Of a stretch of 64,000 bases of DNA, positions 2,461 through 37,188 are shown one piece after another; position 1 is the first letter of the stretch; every line of letters begins with the position of its first letter. The notes below the pieces were generated by a model. That model made no database searches and had not been told where the DNA came from. It saw nothing but the letters and a program-made list of their open reading frames with translations. The position numbers and the translations under genes were made by a program. The DNA comes from a virus, in the IMG/VR virus record IMGVR_UViG_3300046373_000049, positions 2,460 through 66,459 of that record, one strand, 5' to 3'.

Positions 2461-3071
2461 GCGACTACGACCGATACATCGAAACCCGTGACAAATCCCT
2501 GCGCGACATCGCCCAGCGCGACGCACGCATCAAAAGCCCGGCTATCGACGCCCAGGTGAAGGCAGCGCTTGGGCATACACGGGCTGCCGACATTTACCTG
2601 CCAAACCACATCGACCAGTTCCATCCGAACGGCGTGGCACCCAAGCGCACCATCACGGATTCGCCAGTCAGTCAGGTGCTGCGCAGCATCGAAGCGGCGA
2701 AGCGCTTGAGGGACGAGCACAAGTTCTGGCCGCGTCTGCGCCCTGTCACGACCTTCAGCGGCATGACGGAATGGCAGGCTGACTACCATAGCAAGCACGC
2801 CCGCAACCTTACCCCTGCTGACGCATACGACTCCCTGGCGAAATACATGGGCCTGAGCCTGCGCTCGCGGCCAGCTTCATACGGAATACAACGGACGCAG
2901 AAGCGGTCTATTGCGCCCCTGCCTCGCGTCGTCGTATGCTTCCCTACAGGTGCTGCGCGCTGGAAGGCAGAACTGGATGGCAAGAAGTCTTATGGCCCTA
3001 CGCCCACGGCAGCACTGCGAGCGCTTATGGCTCAGATCGAAGTGAAGAGCAAGAATGCTGGGAGCTGCTGA
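2457..3071 (+). CDS. hypothetical protein
   Basis: 204-aa ORF ATGA-coupled to terS. Confidence 0.65.
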   Translation: MSDYDRYIETRDKSLRDIAQRDARIKSPAIDAQVKAALGHTRAADIYLPNHIDQFHPNGVAPKRTITDSPVSQVLRSIEAAKRLRDEHKFWPRLRPVTTFSGMTEWQADYHSKHARNLTPADAYDSLAKYMGLSLRSRPASYGIQRTQKRSIAPLPRVVVCFPTGAARWKAELDGKKSYGPTPTAALRALMAQIEVKSKNAGSC

Positions 3072-3298
3072 TGGGAACAGTAATGGACGTGGGCGTGGGG
3101 CTGTACATGATGGCCATAGTCGTGGGCATCATCATCCCCCTGCTGGTGTACATCCAGCACGACTGTACAAATCTGTACGACGAGTGGAGCGAAGAGAACC
3201 CATGCGACCACTTCCGCGTGCTGGCCGCCCTTGGCGACAAGACGGGCAAGTGCGTTAAATGCGGGGCCGATGTTGACCTCGACTCTATGAATCCGTAG
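3071..3298 (+). CDS. small membrane protein with CxH/CxxC
   Basis: hydrophobic N-terminal helix; CDHF...CVKCG. Confidence 0.5.
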   Translation: MGTVMDVGVGLYMMAIVVGIIIPLLVYIQHDCTNLYDEWSEENPCDHFRVLAALGDKTGKCVKCGADVDLDSMNP

Positions 3299-30903: not shown

Positions 30904-33900
30904 ATGGAAAACGATAAAGACCTGGGCGCATTCGCGTCCACCGTTCCGCAGAAGCAGAACGACCTGGGCGACTTCGCTTCTGCTGTACCGGCCCCGCCGT
31001 CGCCCATCAAGCGCATGGCTTCGGATGTCGGCCTGTCACTGGCACGCGGTATTGTCGGCGCCCCTGAAGCGCTGATCGGCTTGGCCGACATTCCTTCTGG
31101 TGGCGCTGTCGGTAAGCTGGCCGAACAGGCTGGCATCAAGACCAAGGAAACAAAAAACATCATCGCGGATTACTACTCGCCAGAGTACAAGGCCGCGCAG
31201 GAAAAGGTCAACACGGCTGAAGGCTTTGTGCCGACCGTCGTTGCCGCTGCACAGAATCCTTCCACTATCGTCGGTAGCGCGGTTGAATCCCTGCCGTCCA
31301 TGGTGGCAGGCGGCGCCATTGGCCGCGTCGCCCGTGGCGCTTCAGCCATGAGTCCAGTTCTCGCTGGCGCCATTGGTGAGGGCGCTGTATCTGCTGGTCA
31401 GACGGCAGAGCAGGTTCGCCAGTCCACGGCGAATGGTCTGCTGACGCCTGAGCAAGCCGGGCTGGCTGCCGCATCCGGCGCCGCCACTGGCGCCATCAAC
31501 CTTGTTGGCGGCAAGATCGCGCAGAAGCTGGGTATTGCCGACCTGGATACCATGCTGGCTGGCGGCGCCGGTCAAGCAGGCCGCGCCGGGCTGGCTCGCC
31601 GCGTCGCGCAAGGCGCTGTAAGCGAAGGCTTGCTGGAAGAGGCGCCACAGTCATACCAGGAACAAGTGGCGCAGAACCTCGCCACCGGCCAGCAATGGAA
31701 CCAGGGCGCGGCCAATGCTGCTGCACAGGGCGCGCTGGCTGGCGGCCTGATGGGCGGCGGCGCGAACATCCCTGGCCCTATCACTGGCGCGGCCAACAAG
31801 GCAGCACCAGAACAGCCTGGAGCATCCGTACCCATCAAGACGATGGAAGCGGCACAGGCTCGCGCAAACCGCATGACCACGGAAACCGGCACGCCGTTTG
31901 AAGTCACGCCACATCCGACTGTCGGCGGCTCCTTCACCGTTACACCAGTCGAGGTGGAAAATGGAAAACCAGGACGAAGCGATGGAACAGGTGATGGAAA
32001 ACCATCTGGTGCAGCGAACGCTGTCATGGATTCCGCTGTACAACCCGCTAACATCATTGCAGATGCTGGAGCTGGTGGACGCGGGACTGGCGACGCCGGA
32101 CGAAATCAGCCTGTGGTCGAAGGATCAACTGCCGGAACCGCGCAACAGCCAGATCGAGTATCTGGCGATCCTGCTGACGCTGGACGTGCCGACCTCGCCG
32201 GTAATGTAGAAGCCGCTCCATTGGCGCCGCCCGCTGGCCCGATTGAAGCCGCCTCGCGCCTCGCGCCGCAAGCACCTGTCGCTGGCGCCGAGGCCGCTGC
32301 CGCTCCGCTGGAAGCAGCGGCTGCCGCCGCGCCCGTACAAGTGGCTCGCCCTGACGGCACCATCGTCGAGGCCACGAACATCGGTGCGAGCAAGGTCAAT
32401 CCAGCCGATCCTGCAAGCCTGCGCATGGCGACCGGCTTTGATCTGTCAGCGCACGACGCCGCGAACTCCCCGCTCAACGAGCGCCGCCTGTCCACGCCAG
32501 CCCAGCAGACCGCGAACAATGCCAAGCTGGGCGAGGCAGACTTCCAGGGCTTGACCGTCAAGGTGGAAAATCCACAGGGTTCGGTGCGCAGCGGCGTGGC
32601 CGAAGATAAGACCCCATGGAATACCCTGATGACTGAGCACTACGGCTACATCAAGGGCACCAAGGGAGCCGATGCCGCTGGCGTCGATACCTTCGTCGGC
32701 CCATCCGTGGACAGCCCCAAGGCTTTCGTCGTGGATCAGACCAGCGCCGATGGCAAGTTCGACGAGCACAAGGTCATGCTGGGCTTCAACACGCTGGACG
32801 AAGCGAAGGCTGCCTATTACGACAACTACCAGCAAGGCTGGCAGGGCGGCGAGAACATCAGCGAAACGACGGTCGATGGCCTGAAGGATTGGCTGAAGAC
32901 CGGCGAAACCACACAGCCATTCTCCGCGAACCAGACAACAGCGCCAGCGCAGGAAGCAGCACCAGCATCGCCCGCCGTGGCCCAGGCCCAGGCCGCCAAT
33001 GTCGTGCCGAAGGAACTGGCCGTGCAGGCGACCGGCACGTTTTCCGATCAGGCCGCAGCGCAGACCTTCGCCGCCACGAACAAGCTGGATGTCGAGGCCG
33101 TGCCGAATCCGAAGGGCGGATTTTCGCTGGCCCCGAAGGTGGCGCCGGAAACCGCACTGTCCCGCGTCGCTGACGACAAGCGCATCAATGAATTGAATAA
33201 GGCCATGGAAAGCGAGGGCGTCAAGATCAGCGTGGTGCGCAATGTCACGCCTGAGCAGCGCATCGTGCAGGCCGTGGCCGACAAGGCATTCGGCACGCGC
33301 CTGACCTACGTGACCGACAACGATGTTTTCCATGGCGTCGCATACAAGGGCGACGTGTACGTGGCGACCGGCGAGAAATCCCCGCTGATCCCCATCACAT
33401 TCCACGAGGTATCGCACATCCTGCAAATGACTGATAAGAAGCTGGCGTCAAAGCTGGAAGATTTCGTCGTGCAATACATGAAGCCGGGCCTTGTTCAAAG
33501 CCGCATCGACTACGAGAACTCCCGCGCTCCAGCGGAAAACCAGATCGGCCTTGAGCAAGGTTTCAATGAAACCATGGCAGACATCGGCGGCGCCGTGGCG
33601 GTCGATCCGAACTTCTGGCGCAAGATGGCCGAGCACGACGAAAGCCTGTTCCGCAAGGTGGCATACAAGGTCATGCAGATGCTGACCAAGGCCATCCGCG
33701 TGGCAGCCGGTTCGCACTTCGACATCGACCGCATGGTAAGCGACCGCGCTGCCGTGCAGGAAGCCATCGCAAAAGCCTGGGGCGAGTACAACAGCAACCG
33801 CGACAAGGGCGTTTATAAAGGCAAAGAAAATGGAACAGGATCGGATCAAAAAGCTGGAGGACAGCAAACCCTTGCGCGAAAAGTTCAAGAGCCAGCAGGA

Positions 33901-36900
33901 GTTTCAGGAAAGTCTGAATTACTGGATGCAGCACCAGGGAAAGATAATCGCGCTATCCCGCTCCGTGGACTCCCCACCTCCGTCATCGTCGATGGCAAAG
34001 CCGTAACCTTCGGCCCGTTCGCACCGGCCAAGGAAGCGGCGGAACGCTACCGCAAAGCGGCAGGCATCACTGCGCCTGTGCAGCGCGACTACGTGAAGGT
34101 CGATCCGCAGCGTGCCCGTGGCATCGCCGCAGAATTTGAGGACATGAAGCACGACCCGAGCGATCCGAAGGTCAAGGCGTCGTATGCCGCCATGATTAAA
34201 GAAACGCTGGCCCAGTACCAGGAAATCAAGAAGACCGGCCTGAAGATCGAGCTGATTACCGGCGCCGACCCATACGGCAATCCGCGCAAAGCCATTATGG
34301 ATGTCGTCAACAACAACCACTTGTGGGTCTACCCAACTACGTCGGGATTTGGCGGCACCGAGTCCGCAGGCGTGGACATCACCGGCAATCCACTGCTGGC
34401 GCCAGTGGACGAAAAGATCGGCAAGCACCAGCTTGTAGCGAACGATGTTTTCCGCATCGTCCACGATTACTTCGGCCACATCAAGGAGGGCGTCGGCTTC
34501 CGCGCCGAGGGCGAAGAGAACGCATGGCAGCAGCACGCTTCCATGTACTCCGACCTTGCCCGCCCAGCCATGACGACCGAGACTCGCGGCCAGAACTCAT
34601 GGGTAAATTTCGGCCCGTTCGCTGAATTCAACAAGACGGCAAACGGCGCCGACACGCAGTACGCTCCACAGAAAGTCGGCCTGATGCCTGAGTGGACGGC
34701 GACCAATGAGAAGCCGCAGTTCTCGCGCACGCCGCCCGACTGGATCAATCAAGTCCCAGGCATGACGCCTGAGATTGCGAAGAAGGTGGGCTTGTGGGTT
34801 CCTGAAAAAACCCTGGCAGAACGCTTCAACGAGCTGAAGCAAGACCTTGGCAAGAAGATGGTGCAGGGCATGGTCGATCAGTTCGCGCCCATCAAGGCGC
34901 TGGACATGAAGGCGTACATGCAGGCCCGGCTGTCGAAGGCATCCGATGGCGGCCTGGAAGCCATGCTGATGTATGGCAAGCTGGGCCTGGACGCCGATGG
35001 CGCCATCACGGTCAGCAATACGGGCGGCTTCATCGACTCCATGAAAAAGCTGGGCGTAGAGCAGGAGCGCTTCTTTTCCTGGGTAGCAGGCAACCGCGCC
35101 GCCGAGCTGAAGGCGAACGGCAAAGAAAACCTCTTCACCGATACCGACATCAGCGCGCTGAAGAACTTGAACCAGGGCGTGAATGCTGACGGCAAAAACC
35201 GTACAGCCCTGTACGCCGAGGTGCTGAAGGACTTGAACGGTTTCTCGAAATCCATCCTGGACATCGCAGAGAAGTCGGGCTTGATCGACGGCAACGAGCG
35301 CCACAAGTGGGAGAAGGATTTCTATGTGCCGTTCTACCGCGTCCTGGAAGATGACGGCAAGGCTGTCGGCCCGCGCAATCTGGCTGGCCTGACGAACCAG
35401 TACGCCTTCAAGAAGCTGAAGGGCGGCAAGGAAAACTTGAATGACCTGATGCAGAACACGGTCATGAACTGGGCGCATCTGTTGTCGGCATCGCTCAAGA
35501 ATCAGGCGGCCACGACGACCCTGGACGCGGCACAGAAACTGGGCGTGGCCCACAATGTCACGTCGTCCACGAAGGGTTCCGTCTTCGTCCTGAAGAATGG
35601 CAAGGAAATGCACTACGTCGTTGACGATCCATTCATCACCGATGCGATTTCTTCGCTCGCCTTCAGCGGCATGAAGGGCACCATCATCGACATCGCCACC
35701 AAGGCGAAGCGGATGCTGTCGTTCGGCGTGACGTTCGGCCCGACCTACAAAATCCGCAACATCATCCGCGACCAATTGCAAGCCGTGGCCGCGAACCCGA
35801 TGTCGCTCAACGTGGCGAAGAACCTTGCCACCGGCATCAAGTATTCGTCGAAGGACAATCCACTGTATGCGCAGATGCTGGCTGGCGGCGGCCTGTTCCG
35901 CATGGGCGCTGCCTACGAGGACAACCGCGCACAGCACCTGAAGAATCTGGTGAAGAAGCTCCCATCTGGCAGCATCGTGGACTCGACGACGAAGCTGCGC
36001 GGCGTGGCGAACAAAGCATACGACGCCTGGATGGAACTGGGCGACCGTGGCGAGACAATCACGCGGGCCGCGATCTACTCGCAGATGATGGCCGCTGGAG
36101 CAAGCCATCTGGAAGCCAGCTACAACACGCGGGACAGCATGGACTTCGGCCTGCAAGGTGCATGGCCTGCCGTCCGCCTGTTGACGCAAACCGTACCGTT
36201 CATGAATGCCCGCATGCAGGGTCTGTATAAGCTGGGCCGCGCAGCCAAGGAAAACCCACGCCGCTTCGCCACGGTGCTGGGCGCCACGTCCATCGCCACG
36301 ATTGCGCTGATGCTGGCGAGCCGCGACGACGAGGACTGGAAGCGCCGCGAGGAATGGGATCGTGACAGCTTCTGGTGGTTCAAAGTCGGCGGCAAAGCCA
36401 TTCGCATTCCAAAGCCATTCGAGATTGGCGCCATGGCATCCATTGCAGAGCGTGGCCTTGACATGATCCTGGAAGGCATGGACGAAAAGAGCCGCGACCG
36501 TTTCGCCAAGCGGCTGTATCACATCGTCATGGATAACCTGTCGATGAATCCTGTTCCGCAGCTCGTCAAGCCAGCACTCGACCTGTACGCCAACAAAGAC
36601 CCGTTCCGCCTGCGCGCCATTGAAACCCCTGGCATGGAAAAGCTGTCTAAGTCCGAGCGCATCGGCGGCAGCACGACCGGCATGGCCGTGATGCTTGGCA
36701 AGGCAGGCGTCCTGTCGCCAGTCCAGATCGACTACATCATCAGCGGATACTTCGGCTGGCTTGGTTCGCACATCGCCATGGCTGCCGACCCAGTGATGCG
36801 CCCAGTAATGGGCATGCCTGAAAAGGCTGAACGGAAGATCGACGACGCCTTCTTCGTGGGCGACTGGGTAAAGGAATTGCCATCGAACCAAAGCCGCTAT

Positions 36901-37188
36901 GTCGAAGAGTTTTATCGCCAAGCTGTCAAGGTGCGCGAAGCAACGGCTGACATGCAGCACTATAAAAAACTCGGCAATATCGAGAAGGCCCGCGAGATTT
37001 TCGAGGAAGACAAGGAGCTGATTAAGCAATCGCCGCGTTTCAATATGGCAACCACGAGTATCAATAAAATCAATTTACGAATTCAACAAGTACAAGCATC
37101 CAGTAAAATGGATGCCAAGCAGAAACGGGTTGAAGTGGATCGCCTTAGCGCTATGCGAAATAAGATTGCTGAAAGAGTAATGAAGTGA
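30904..37188 (+). CDS. large polyvalent internal virion protein (pyrophosphatase-like, zincin-like and LPD38-like domains)
   Basis: 2094 aa; ENPQGSVRSG..YGYIKGT..DEHKVMLGF; FHEVSH; VHDYFGH; C-terminal PFMNARMQG, EEWDRDSFW, RIPKPFEIG. Confidence 0.85.
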   Translation: MENDKDLGAFASTVPQKQNDLGDFASAVPAPPSPIKRMASDVGLSLARGIVGAPEALIGLADIPSGGAVGKLAEQAGIKTKETKNIIADYYSPEYKAAQEKVNTAEGFVPTVVAAAQNPSTIVGSAVESLPSMVAGGAIGRVARGASAMSPVLAGAIGEGAVSAGQTAEQVRQSTANGLLTPEQAGLAAASGAATGAINLVGGKIAQKLGIADLDTMLAGGAGQAGRAGLARRVAQGAVSEGLLEEAPQSYQEQVAQNLATGQQWNQGAANAAAQGALAGGLMGGGANIPGPITGAANKAAPEQPGASVPIKTMEAAQARANRMTTETGTPFEVTPHPTVGGSFTVTPVEVENGKPGRSDGTGDGKPSGAANAVMDSAVQPANIIADAGAGGRGTGDAGRNQPVVEGSTAGTAQQPDRVSGDPADAGRADLAGNVEAAPLAPPAGPIEAASRLAPQAPVAGAEAAAAPLEAAAAAAPVQVARPDGTIVEATNIGASKVNPADPASLRMATGFDLSAHDAANSPLNERRLSTPAQQTANNAKLGEADFQGLTVKVENPQGSVRSGVAEDKTPWNTLMTEHYGYIKGTKGADAAGVDTFVGPSVDSPKAFVVDQTSADGKFDEHKVMLGFNTLDEAKAAYYDNYQQGWQGGENISETTVDGLKDWLKTGETTQPFSANQTTAPAQEAAPASPAVAQAQAANVVPKELAVQATGTFSDQAAAQTFAATNKLDVEAVPNPKGGFSLAPKVAPETALSRVADDKRINELNKAMESEGVKISVVRNVTPEQRIVQAVADKAFGTRLTYVTDNDVFHGVAYKGDVYVATGEKSPLIPITFHEVSHILQMTDKKLASKLEDFVVQYMKPGLVQSRIDYENSRAPAENQIGLEQGFNETMADIGGAVAVDPNFWRKMAEHDESLFRKVAYKVMQMLTKAIRVAAGSHFDIDRMVSDRAAVQEAIAKAWGEYNSNRDKGVYKGKENGTGSDQKAGGQQTLARKVQEPAGVSGKSELLDAAPGKDNRAIPLRGLPTSVIVDGKAVTFGPFAPAKEAAERYRKAAGITAPVQRDYVKVDPQRARGIAAEFEDMKHDPSDPKVKASYAAMIKETLAQYQEIKKTGLKIELITGADPYGNPRKAIMDVVNNNHLWVYPTTSGFGGTESAGVDITGNPLLAPVDEKIGKHQLVANDVFRIVHDYFGHIKEGVGFRAEGEENAWQQHASMYSDLARPAMTTETRGQNSWVNFGPFAEFNKTANGADTQYAPQKVGLMPEWTATNEKPQFSRTPPDWINQVPGMTPEIAKKVGLWVPEKTLAERFNELKQDLGKKMVQGMVDQFAPIKALDMKAYMQARLSKASDGGLEAMLMYGKLGLDADGAITVSNTGGFIDSMKKLGVEQERFFSWVAGNRAAELKANGKENLFTDTDISALKNLNQGVNADGKNRTALYAEVLKDLNGFSKSILDIAEKSGLIDGNERHKWEKDFYVPFYRVLEDDGKAVGPRNLAGLTNQYAFKKLKGGKENLNDLMQNTVMNWAHLLSASLKNQAATTTLDAAQKLGVAHNVTSSTKGSVFVLKNGKEMHYVVDDPFITDAISSLAFSGMKGTIIDIATKAKRMLSFGVTFGPTYKIRNIIRDQLQAVAANPMSLNVAKNLATGIKYSSKDNPLYAQMLAGGGLFRMGAAYEDNRAQHLKNLVKKLPSGSIVDSTTKLRGVANKAYDAWMELGDRGETITRAAIYSQMMAAGASHLEASYNTRDSMDFGLQGAWPAVRLLTQTVPFMNARMQGLYKLGRAAKENPRRFATVLGATSIATIALMLASRDDEDWKRREEWDRDSFWWFKVGGKAIRIPKPFEIGAMASIAERGLDMILEGMDEKSRDRFAKRLYHIVMDNLSMNPVPQLVKPALDLYANKDPFRLRAIETPGMEKLSKSERIGGSTTGMAVMLGKAGVLSPVQIDYIISGYFGWLGSHIAMAADPVMRPVMGMPEKAERKIDDAFFVGDWVKELPSNQSRYVEEFYRQAVKVREATADMQHYKKLGNIEKAREIFEEDKELIKQSPRFNMATTSINKINLRIQQVQASSKMDAKQKRVEVDRLSAMRNKIAERVMK
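31961..32209 (+). CDS. nested +1-frame gene (82 aa) inside the polyvalent protein gene
   Basis: GAGGT RBS; codons mostly end in G/C while the host frame here ends in A/T. Confidence 0.65.
   Translation: MENQDEAMEQVMENHLVQRTLSWIPLYNPLTSLQMLELVDAGLATPDEISLWSKDQLPEPRNSQIEYLAILLTLDVPTSPVM
33830..34006 (+). CDS. nested +1-frame gene (58 aa) inside the polyvalent protein gene
   Basis: MEQDRIKKLEDSKPLREKFKSQQEFQESLNYWMQHQGKIIALSRSVDSPPPSSSMAKP; A-rich AAAGG leader; same codon-bias switch. Confidence 0.6.
   Translation: MEQDRIKKLEDSKPLREKFKSQQEFQESLNYWMQHQGKIIALSRSVDSPPPSSSMAKP

Follow-up and report, generated by a model that had tools for sequence, protein, structure and literature searches.

A conserved small gene nested out of frame in a phage polyvalent protein gene and its predicted association with the adjoining HDYFGH domain

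A 58-amino acid (aa) open reading frame (ORF) lies nested within a giant phage gene in a stretch of viral DNA of 64,000 nucleotides, here called the window (positions 2,460 to 66,459 of IMG/VR record IMGVR_UViG_3300046373_000049, a record of 66,459 bases with direct terminal repeats). The host gene (30904-37188, plus strand) encodes a large polyvalent protein of 2094 aa, and the small ORF occupies 33830-34006 on the same strand, in the +1 frame of the host and immediately upstream of the codons for a main-frame domain termed HDYFGH. Comparison of homologous loci indicates that this ORF is almost certainly a genuine embedded protein-coding gene, and structure prediction suggests that its product probably binds the HDYFGH domain. 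That the small protein serves as an inhibitor or safety catch is a more tentative proposal, given somewhat less than an even chance. The account as a whole, of a nested gene whose product is a masking partner of the HDYFGH domain, is on balance favoured as the best explanation.

The ORF had been singled out in an earlier note on this DNA, and its ATG at 33830, its TAA at 34004-34006 and the peptide quoted there were all borne out by reading the frame. It covers main-frame residues 976-1035. Alignment places the conserved core, KP.RE.F....EF.E...YW....GK, at small-protein residues 13-38 (33866-33943, plus strand). The main frame is kept open across the small gene as an inter-domain linker (33829-33951, plus strand), which had been described as composed of A/T-ending codons; indeed, G+C content at third codon positions (GC3) in 33830-33950 is 0.22 in the main frame, against 0.72 for the main frame gene-wide and 0.725 for the +1 frame over the same interval. 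The accompanying claim that the ORF ends where the next folded domain starts holds only roughly. The HDYFGH domain (33952-34713, plus strand, main frame, 254 aa), the predicted binding partner, is matched by its profile from about 33958, and the ORF stop lies about 16 codons inside it.

Loci for comparison came from four GenBank phage records and from viral, metagenome and genome contigs that were scanned with sequence patterns, among them patterns from an eight-row alignment (A3; alignment A2 was too diverse). With duplicates merged, 16 distinct loci were obtained: the window, L001, L002, L004, L005, L013, L014, L020, L021, L023, L029, L030, L032, L035, L044 and L047, with window/L001 and L014/L029 as close pairs. 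In all 16 loci holding both elements the peptide is encoded in the +1 frame of the HDYFGH-encoding ORF, directly upstream of the domain and overlapping its first codons, the +1 frame runs open from a start to a stop codon, and the main frame is open across the small ORF. A peptide of the KP.RE.F type, which the earlier note had proposed seeking next to or overlapping the domain in HDYFGH homologs, does occur in these loci, and the want of conserved homologs or of linkage to a neighbouring domain, on which that note had said its idea would founder, was not what was found. The window peptide gave no tblastn match at E <= 1 among 50,697 GenBank phage records, and a local profile search of the four GenBank records recovered two copies of the embedded gene, each with a strong Shine-Dalgarno sequence and each unannotated: a divergent copy at 1678-1884 in Planktothrix phage Pag-Yong1 (L044, OL906435.1), and one at 1887-2024 in MW202675.1 (L047). 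The small ORF of L023 (2582-2776) ends early, at a TGA straight after its FW motif, and high +1-frame GC3 (0.87) continues for 64 codons beyond; the signal past the TGA may stem from another ORF, from read-through or from a mistake in assembly.

The +1 frame is under more selection than the host frame can account for. When 12 loci are compared across 29 ungapped codons, identity is 0.505 in the +1 frame and 0.351 in the main frame, and BLOSUM scores per site are 2.82 and 1.26, respectively, whereas 1000 synonymous shuffles that held the main-frame proteins fixed gave a simulated +1 identity of 0.263 +/- 0.017 (maximum 0.316). The sole conserved linker motif in the main frame, GV.G...LLD, is the out-of-frame image of EF.E...YW. 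The same phase switch is seen between the window and its closest relative, L001, which are 86% identical in nucleotide sequence: their substitutions fall at main-frame codon positions 1/2/3 in numbers of 204/110/551 over the whole gene and 3/4/27 and 8/8/60 in the flanks of 33830-33950, against 11/8/3 within that interval, so that most substitutions there occupy the +1 wobble position. A blind GC3 scan recovered the ORF in all nine of the scanned long ORFs that carry it. The joint probability of an open +1 frame in 12 independent loci is 4.7e-7. Given the +1 peptide, the corresponding value for the main frame is about 1e-15, the chance of an open main frame being 0.17 in the window and 0.001 to 0.013 in L014, L020, L029, L032 and L035, where it is least likely; in free-standing homologs the equivalent frame is closed. 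Retention of the main frame together with selection on the +1 frame indicates that the region is truly dual-coding. Antisense coding was discarded as a candidate because stops occur in all three antisense frames, in 3 to 9 of the 12 loci.

Contigs of four DNA runs contributed just near-identical or L001-like variants. All four carry a T>C change at 33913 that is silent in the +1 frame (Ser28) and replaces Ser with Pro in the main frame, a polymorphism that is weak evidence for +1-frame selection.

Translation signals are enriched ahead of the embedded ORFs. A start codon lies within 30 codons upstream of the motif in 15 of the 16 loci, and 11 of these 15 starts have an anti-Shine-Dalgarno duplex energy of -5.5 kcal/mol or stronger, a level attained by 12.8% of the 3018 start-like triplets that served as background. 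Duplex energy at the starts averages -6.87, compared with a null of -3.63 +/- 0.61, and none of 5000 resamplings reached that mean. In the remaining locus, L030, the nearest start lies 39 to 66 codons ahead of the motif, and the small ORF carries an extra N-terminal module. In the window a weak Shine-Dalgarno-like AAAGG (33817-33821, plus strand; -3.2 kcal/mol) stands 8 nucleotides before the ATG, and no sigma-70-like internal promoter was found in 33300-34300.

The small protein belongs to a broad family. A 15-row profile searched against 1.84 billion proteins matched 229 representative clusters at E <= 1e-3, 55 of them at E <= 1e-10, and the 154 stored members have a median length of 89 aa, with ten at 200 aa or more. 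The family consensus is KP.RE.F....EFEEA..YW....GR, and Glu27 is the only invariant column among 74 family rows. The only name attached to the members found is 'hypothetical protein'; the best Pfam match of the small protein, 4HB_MCP_1, has E = 0.015 to 0.034 (14 bits, where the cut-off is 27), and neither NCBIfam nor PHROGs gave a match. Members that are not next to the HDYFGH domain occur in three kinds of setting. Free-standing genes of 99 to 128 codons are found in L024/L033/L034 and in L031, and L036 is probably another. In L031 (2758-3144) the motif forms the C-terminal part of the small gene, which is divergently oriented from a reverse transcriptase (RT)-like gene, itself a weak match to PF00078 (E = 1.7e-5, below the curated cut-off). 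In L027/L028 the motif opens a protein of 323 aa in which it is joined in frame to Kinase-PolyVal PF18762 (317-1288 in L028), and in bacterial proteins of 365 to 490 aa it is internal.

The HDYFGH domain, with its HDYFGH motif at 34462-34479 (plus strand), has 54 invariant columns in 14 sequences. No relative was found for it in Pfam or NCBIfam; an LPD number in the supplementary lists of PMC5512222 is possible. A PDB profile search gave at best E = 0.013 with no stretch past threshold, and Foldseek comparison of its model with the PDB gave at best E = 0.22 and TM-scores of at most 0.18, while matches in BFVD were to unnamed phage relatives only and those in the ESM Atlas to viral 'hypothetical protein' clusters only. 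The domain may be an enzyme of unsolved fold. Whatever lies upstream of it varies, with InPase and HExxH in the window, ART-PolyVal and DUF7178 in L002, DUF7178 in L005 and no upstream domain recognised in L014, but the downstream HDYFGH domain is constant in all 16 overlapping loci. The linkage extends to shorter proteins, of at most 448 aa (L032) and at most 503 aa (L020) between stops. Of the 19 labelled rows in a tree of the domain, 15 carry the ORF, and these are spread over the whole tree.

Structure prediction gave confident models of both partners. AlphaFold2 models the 254-aa domain from a 14-row alignment with a predicted local distance difference test score (pLDDT) of 88.1 and a predicted TM-score of 0.89, and the small protein from the 74-row alignment with a pLDDT of 84.7, as a helix (residues 2-11), a loop and a second helix (22-47); Foldseek of the peptide model against the PDB gave at best E = 8.9, and the ESM Atlas held no usable match for the peptide. 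For the complex, the interaction prediction score from aligned errors (ipSAE) was 0.93, 0.92 and 0.92 in three runs, against 0.02 for the best of three controls. The partner had a pLDDT of 79-81 in these runs, which have at least 90% of contacts in common. In a calibration this mark was reached by 58 of 80 solved complexes and by 2 of 110 mismatched pairs, counts that are only a rough guide here since custom alignments were used. On the domain side, 41 residues lie confidently in the interface; 17 of them are invariant, compared with 37 of the 213 domain residues elsewhere (Fisher P = 0.001), and the predicted footprint falls on an invariant polar and arginine patch rather than on a peripheral surface, with the invariant Glu27 of the peptide predicted to contact the invariant Arg112 and Arg184 of the domain. 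The model supports binding, short of demonstrating it.

A mechanism may be proposed that would unite these features. The internal ATG of the polyvalent mRNA would be a site of independent initiation by ribosomes, giving a helix-loop-helix protein of about 58 aa. This protein would bind the HDYFGH domain, whose codons follow directly downstream, on its invariant and arginine-rich face. Binding would most likely mask the active surface of the domain in the virion-producing cell; upon ejection into the next host the polyvalent protein would lose its non-covalent partner, and the domain would thereby be armed. The long frame, held open across the small gene, would serve as the linker between domains. 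The preference for masking derives from lineages that have the domain alone: because they keep the invariant face, the face is taken as the working surface of the domain, and a small protein placed on that surface more likely masks it than completes it. Roles as activator, chaperone or subunit nevertheless fit the data equally well.

Several observations weigh against this account. The +1 frame of the window would be open by chance with P = 0.36 in synonymous shuffles that hold the main-frame protein and the codon usage of the gene fixed; openness in the window alone is thus unremarkable, and the case rests on comparison with other loci. The Shine-Dalgarno sequence of the window is weaker than those of most homologous loci, and translation of every copy is deduced from sequence comparison. 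The predicted binding comes from a single modelling method, run on two unpaired alignments (14 rows and 15 rows), and the enzymatic or toxic nature of the domain, which has no known fold relative, is putative. Association is also incomplete in both directions, with about five ORF contexts that lack the HDYFGH domain and four domain loci that lack the ORF. On the one side, a free-standing family member occurs in a 4.9-Mb bacterial metagenome-assembled genome (MAG; L024) that has no HDYFGH match, and others lie beside the RT-like gene or are fused to Kinase-PolyVal; the conserved residues of the family are therefore not explained by HDYFGH binding alone. On the other side, the domain stands without the small ORF in L006, L007/L008, L045 and L046, four loci that form three separate lineages on the domain tree, which requires at least three changes of ORF state. 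One domain-bearing viral record estimated to be 100% complete has no copy of the ORF, in a search with a positive control of 5/5. The earlier note had cast the small protein as the cognate inhibitor of the adjacent domain. Linkage to the downstream domain in all 16 overlapping loci and the predicted binding favour a partnership with that domain, the inhibition itself being conjectural, whereas the domain loci without the ORF and the standalone and Kinase-PolyVal-fused members weigh against a strictly cognate role.

The alternative that survives best, although it seems a good deal less probable than the masking account, is that the embedded gene is real and its function independent of HDYFGH, its product being a small effector or adaptor that acts on the host or on another phage component. 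Its placement would then reflect an ancestral small gene that was read through when two flanking effector genes fused. Such a function would suit the free-standing and fused homologs that have no HDYFGH domain, a family whose 229 clusters range much more widely than the domain association, the loss of the small ORF at least three times from domain-bearing lineages, and the sporadic occurrence of the family in bacteria, where 2 of 101 relatives of the L024 MAG have a member. It sits poorly with the position of all the overlapping copies beside the same domain despite changing upstream domains, and with the gap between the complex and its best control, the predicted contact being on the invariant face of the domain.

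Rather unlikely, and a little more so than independent function, is that the small protein is a required subunit, folding chaperone or activator of the HDYFGH domain. The same predicted-binding evidence speaks for such a role, and translation from the same mRNA just before the domain would favour co-translational assembly. However, the domain-only lineages keep the same invariant residues although they have no small ORF, so that the domain is presumably able to work by itself, and the footprint is on the polar and arginine patch, not the periphery.

Very improbable is a programmed -1 frameshift, in which the small ORF would be the 5' part of a product that starts at 33830, slips at 33937 and continues as a peptide-HDYFGH-C-terminal protein. 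The window does contain a heptamer, GGGAAAG (33937-33943, plus strand), which we take to be of the lambda G-T type; it is in the register of the small ORF and sits exactly where conservation switches between frames, and an in-frame fusion of the peptide to an effector exists in L027/L028. Against this, L001 has GGGCAAG at the same site, and any X_XXY_YYZ heptamer is found in only 3 of the 16 loci, at differing places. As it is absent from L001 and from 13 of the 16 loci, the heptamer is judged probably incidental, and the frameshift candidate was rejected. None of the 169 stored proteins, the 154 family members included, has an HDYFGH profile match or motif, and thus no in-frame peptide-HDYFGH fusion was seen.

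A chance open frame without a product, or a long ORF that is really several genes without read-through here, is just as improbable: the ease with which the +1 frame of the window stays open and the many spurious ORFs that overlap the host gene (30904-37188) would allow it, yet the joint probabilities for both frames, +1 conservation, wobble phase, GC3, start enrichment, the family, the confident fold and the stops in the antisense frames all oppose it.

The direction of overprinting deserves comment, in that the earlier note had called the ORF an overprinted gene. A second-frame gene is real and conserved, but the direction may be the reverse of that implied, since it is the +1 frame whose GC3 is typical of the genome and whose product has a broad family, free-standing genes included, while the codon usage of the linker is aberrant. 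The short +1 frame thus looks to be the older, and the linker frame the younger reading, which would fit a fusion of neighbouring genes across an older small gene.

The host gene itself has InPase (PF18823) at residues 533-665 (Pfam, E = 1e-46) and LPD38 (PF18857) at residues 1809-1979 (Pfam, E = 5e-29), and its PHROG matches are to giant DarB-like and virion RNA polymerase-type proteins. It combines several unrelated effector-type domains, polyvalent-specific families among them, and these matches place it with the large polyvalent proteins in the sense of the main text of PMC5512222. The domain upstream of the small gene had been called zincin-like: an HExxH motif is present (HEVSH, 33403-33417, plus strand), and Pfam lends the assignment no support.

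The small gene is not the only +1-frame ORF in such genes. Two cases had been reported in this one, and a second does exist in an earlier linker, an 82-aa ORF at 31961-32209 (plus strand) preceded by GAGGTGGA, which is most likely the other ORF meant. It has the same phase-switch signature, with GC3 of 0.33 in the main frame and 0.78 in the +1 frame and window/L001 substitutions of 14/5/6, the +1 wobble position being commonest; the only counterparts found were in L001 (87% identity) and in a single database protein of 84 aa (77% identity). The polyvalent gene of L003 contains another +1-frame ORF (2309-2695), whose N-terminal part shares 50% identity, over 52 residues, with that of the embedded ORF of L030. 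The latter (2818-3153) is longer, with the L003-like N-terminal part joined in frame to the KP..EFEEA motif. A general reading, put forward as speculative and rather doubtful, is that polyvalent linkers arise where small partner genes, themselves still expressed, are read through out of frame. Under this conjecture giants would have been built by fusing effector genes across intervening small regulator genes, and hidden +1-frame proteins might bind, and probably restrain, adjacent domains until ejection.

Polyvalent proteins are understood as single long chains from which proteolysis frees the domains. A nested linker gene whose product grips the adjacent domain would, if true, give these arrays of injected effectors a concealed level of regulation or self-protection, and it suggests a route by which the giants are assembled, through fusion across small genes. 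The small protein also offers a concrete handle on the HDYFGH domain, for which there is a confident model and no PDB fold match. Gene callers miss genes of this kind, as the unannotated copies in two GenBank phages illustrate, and the GC3 phase switch provides a cheap screen of other giant phage genes for nested ORFs.

Among known systems, the arrangement most readily recalls Rz/Rz1 of phage lambda, in which a small gene with its own start is entirely contained, in the +1 frame, within a larger one, and the Rz1 product binds the product of Rz, the gene that contains it. The likeness is of a small +1-frame gene nested in a larger phage gene, with its own start and a product predicted to bind that of its container. 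The marks of an embedded spanin are a lipoprotein product, bearing both a signal peptide and a lipobox Cys, and a container gene that encodes a membrane protein in a lysis cassette. In contrast, the small protein described here has no Cys, no hydrophobic N-terminus and no lipobox or signal peptide, its host is a virion-type polyvalent effector unrelated to lysis, and the nested gene lies in an inter-domain linker; a spanin of the Rz/Rz1 type was accordingly rejected.

The relationship to effector-immunity and toxin-antitoxin pairs, polymorphic toxin systems (PMC3482391) among them, is one of proposed function: in the overlapping loci a small protein accompanies a single effector domain, a conserved surface of which it is predicted to cover. 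Its gene, however, is not a separate one downstream of the effector gene but lies within it, in another frame and ahead of the domain; some carriers of the domain have no small ORF; and both toxicity and neutralisation are here putative. A cellular parallel is E. coli GndA, an out-of-frame microprotein encoded by an alternative ORF inside gnd that, in the portion of the report considered (bioRxiv 10.64898/2026.10.22.760973), acts on the protein of the primary ORF. The proposed action is alike, whereas GndA belongs to a cellular housekeeping gene and is connected with heat-shock localisation; the gene in the window is part of a phage effector, and the two have no sequence relation.

With the large polyvalent proteins themselves (Iyer et al. 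2017, PMC5512222), as treated in the main text, the host gene has InPase, LPD38 and HExxH in common, and its relatives carry ART-PolyVal and DUF7178. It departs from the architecture described in that main text, where the words 'overlapping', 'frameshift' and 'linker' each occur 0 times, in having a nested gene in a linker, and no account of genes nested in those of polyvalent proteins turned up in literature searches. Finally, the overprinted genes of small viruses, to judge from the parts of PMC8227390 and PMC3494269 drawn on here, likewise derive two proteins from one stretch of DNA in different frames. The polarity appears to differ, in that here it is the short frame that seems the older, with the long-frame linker laid over it.

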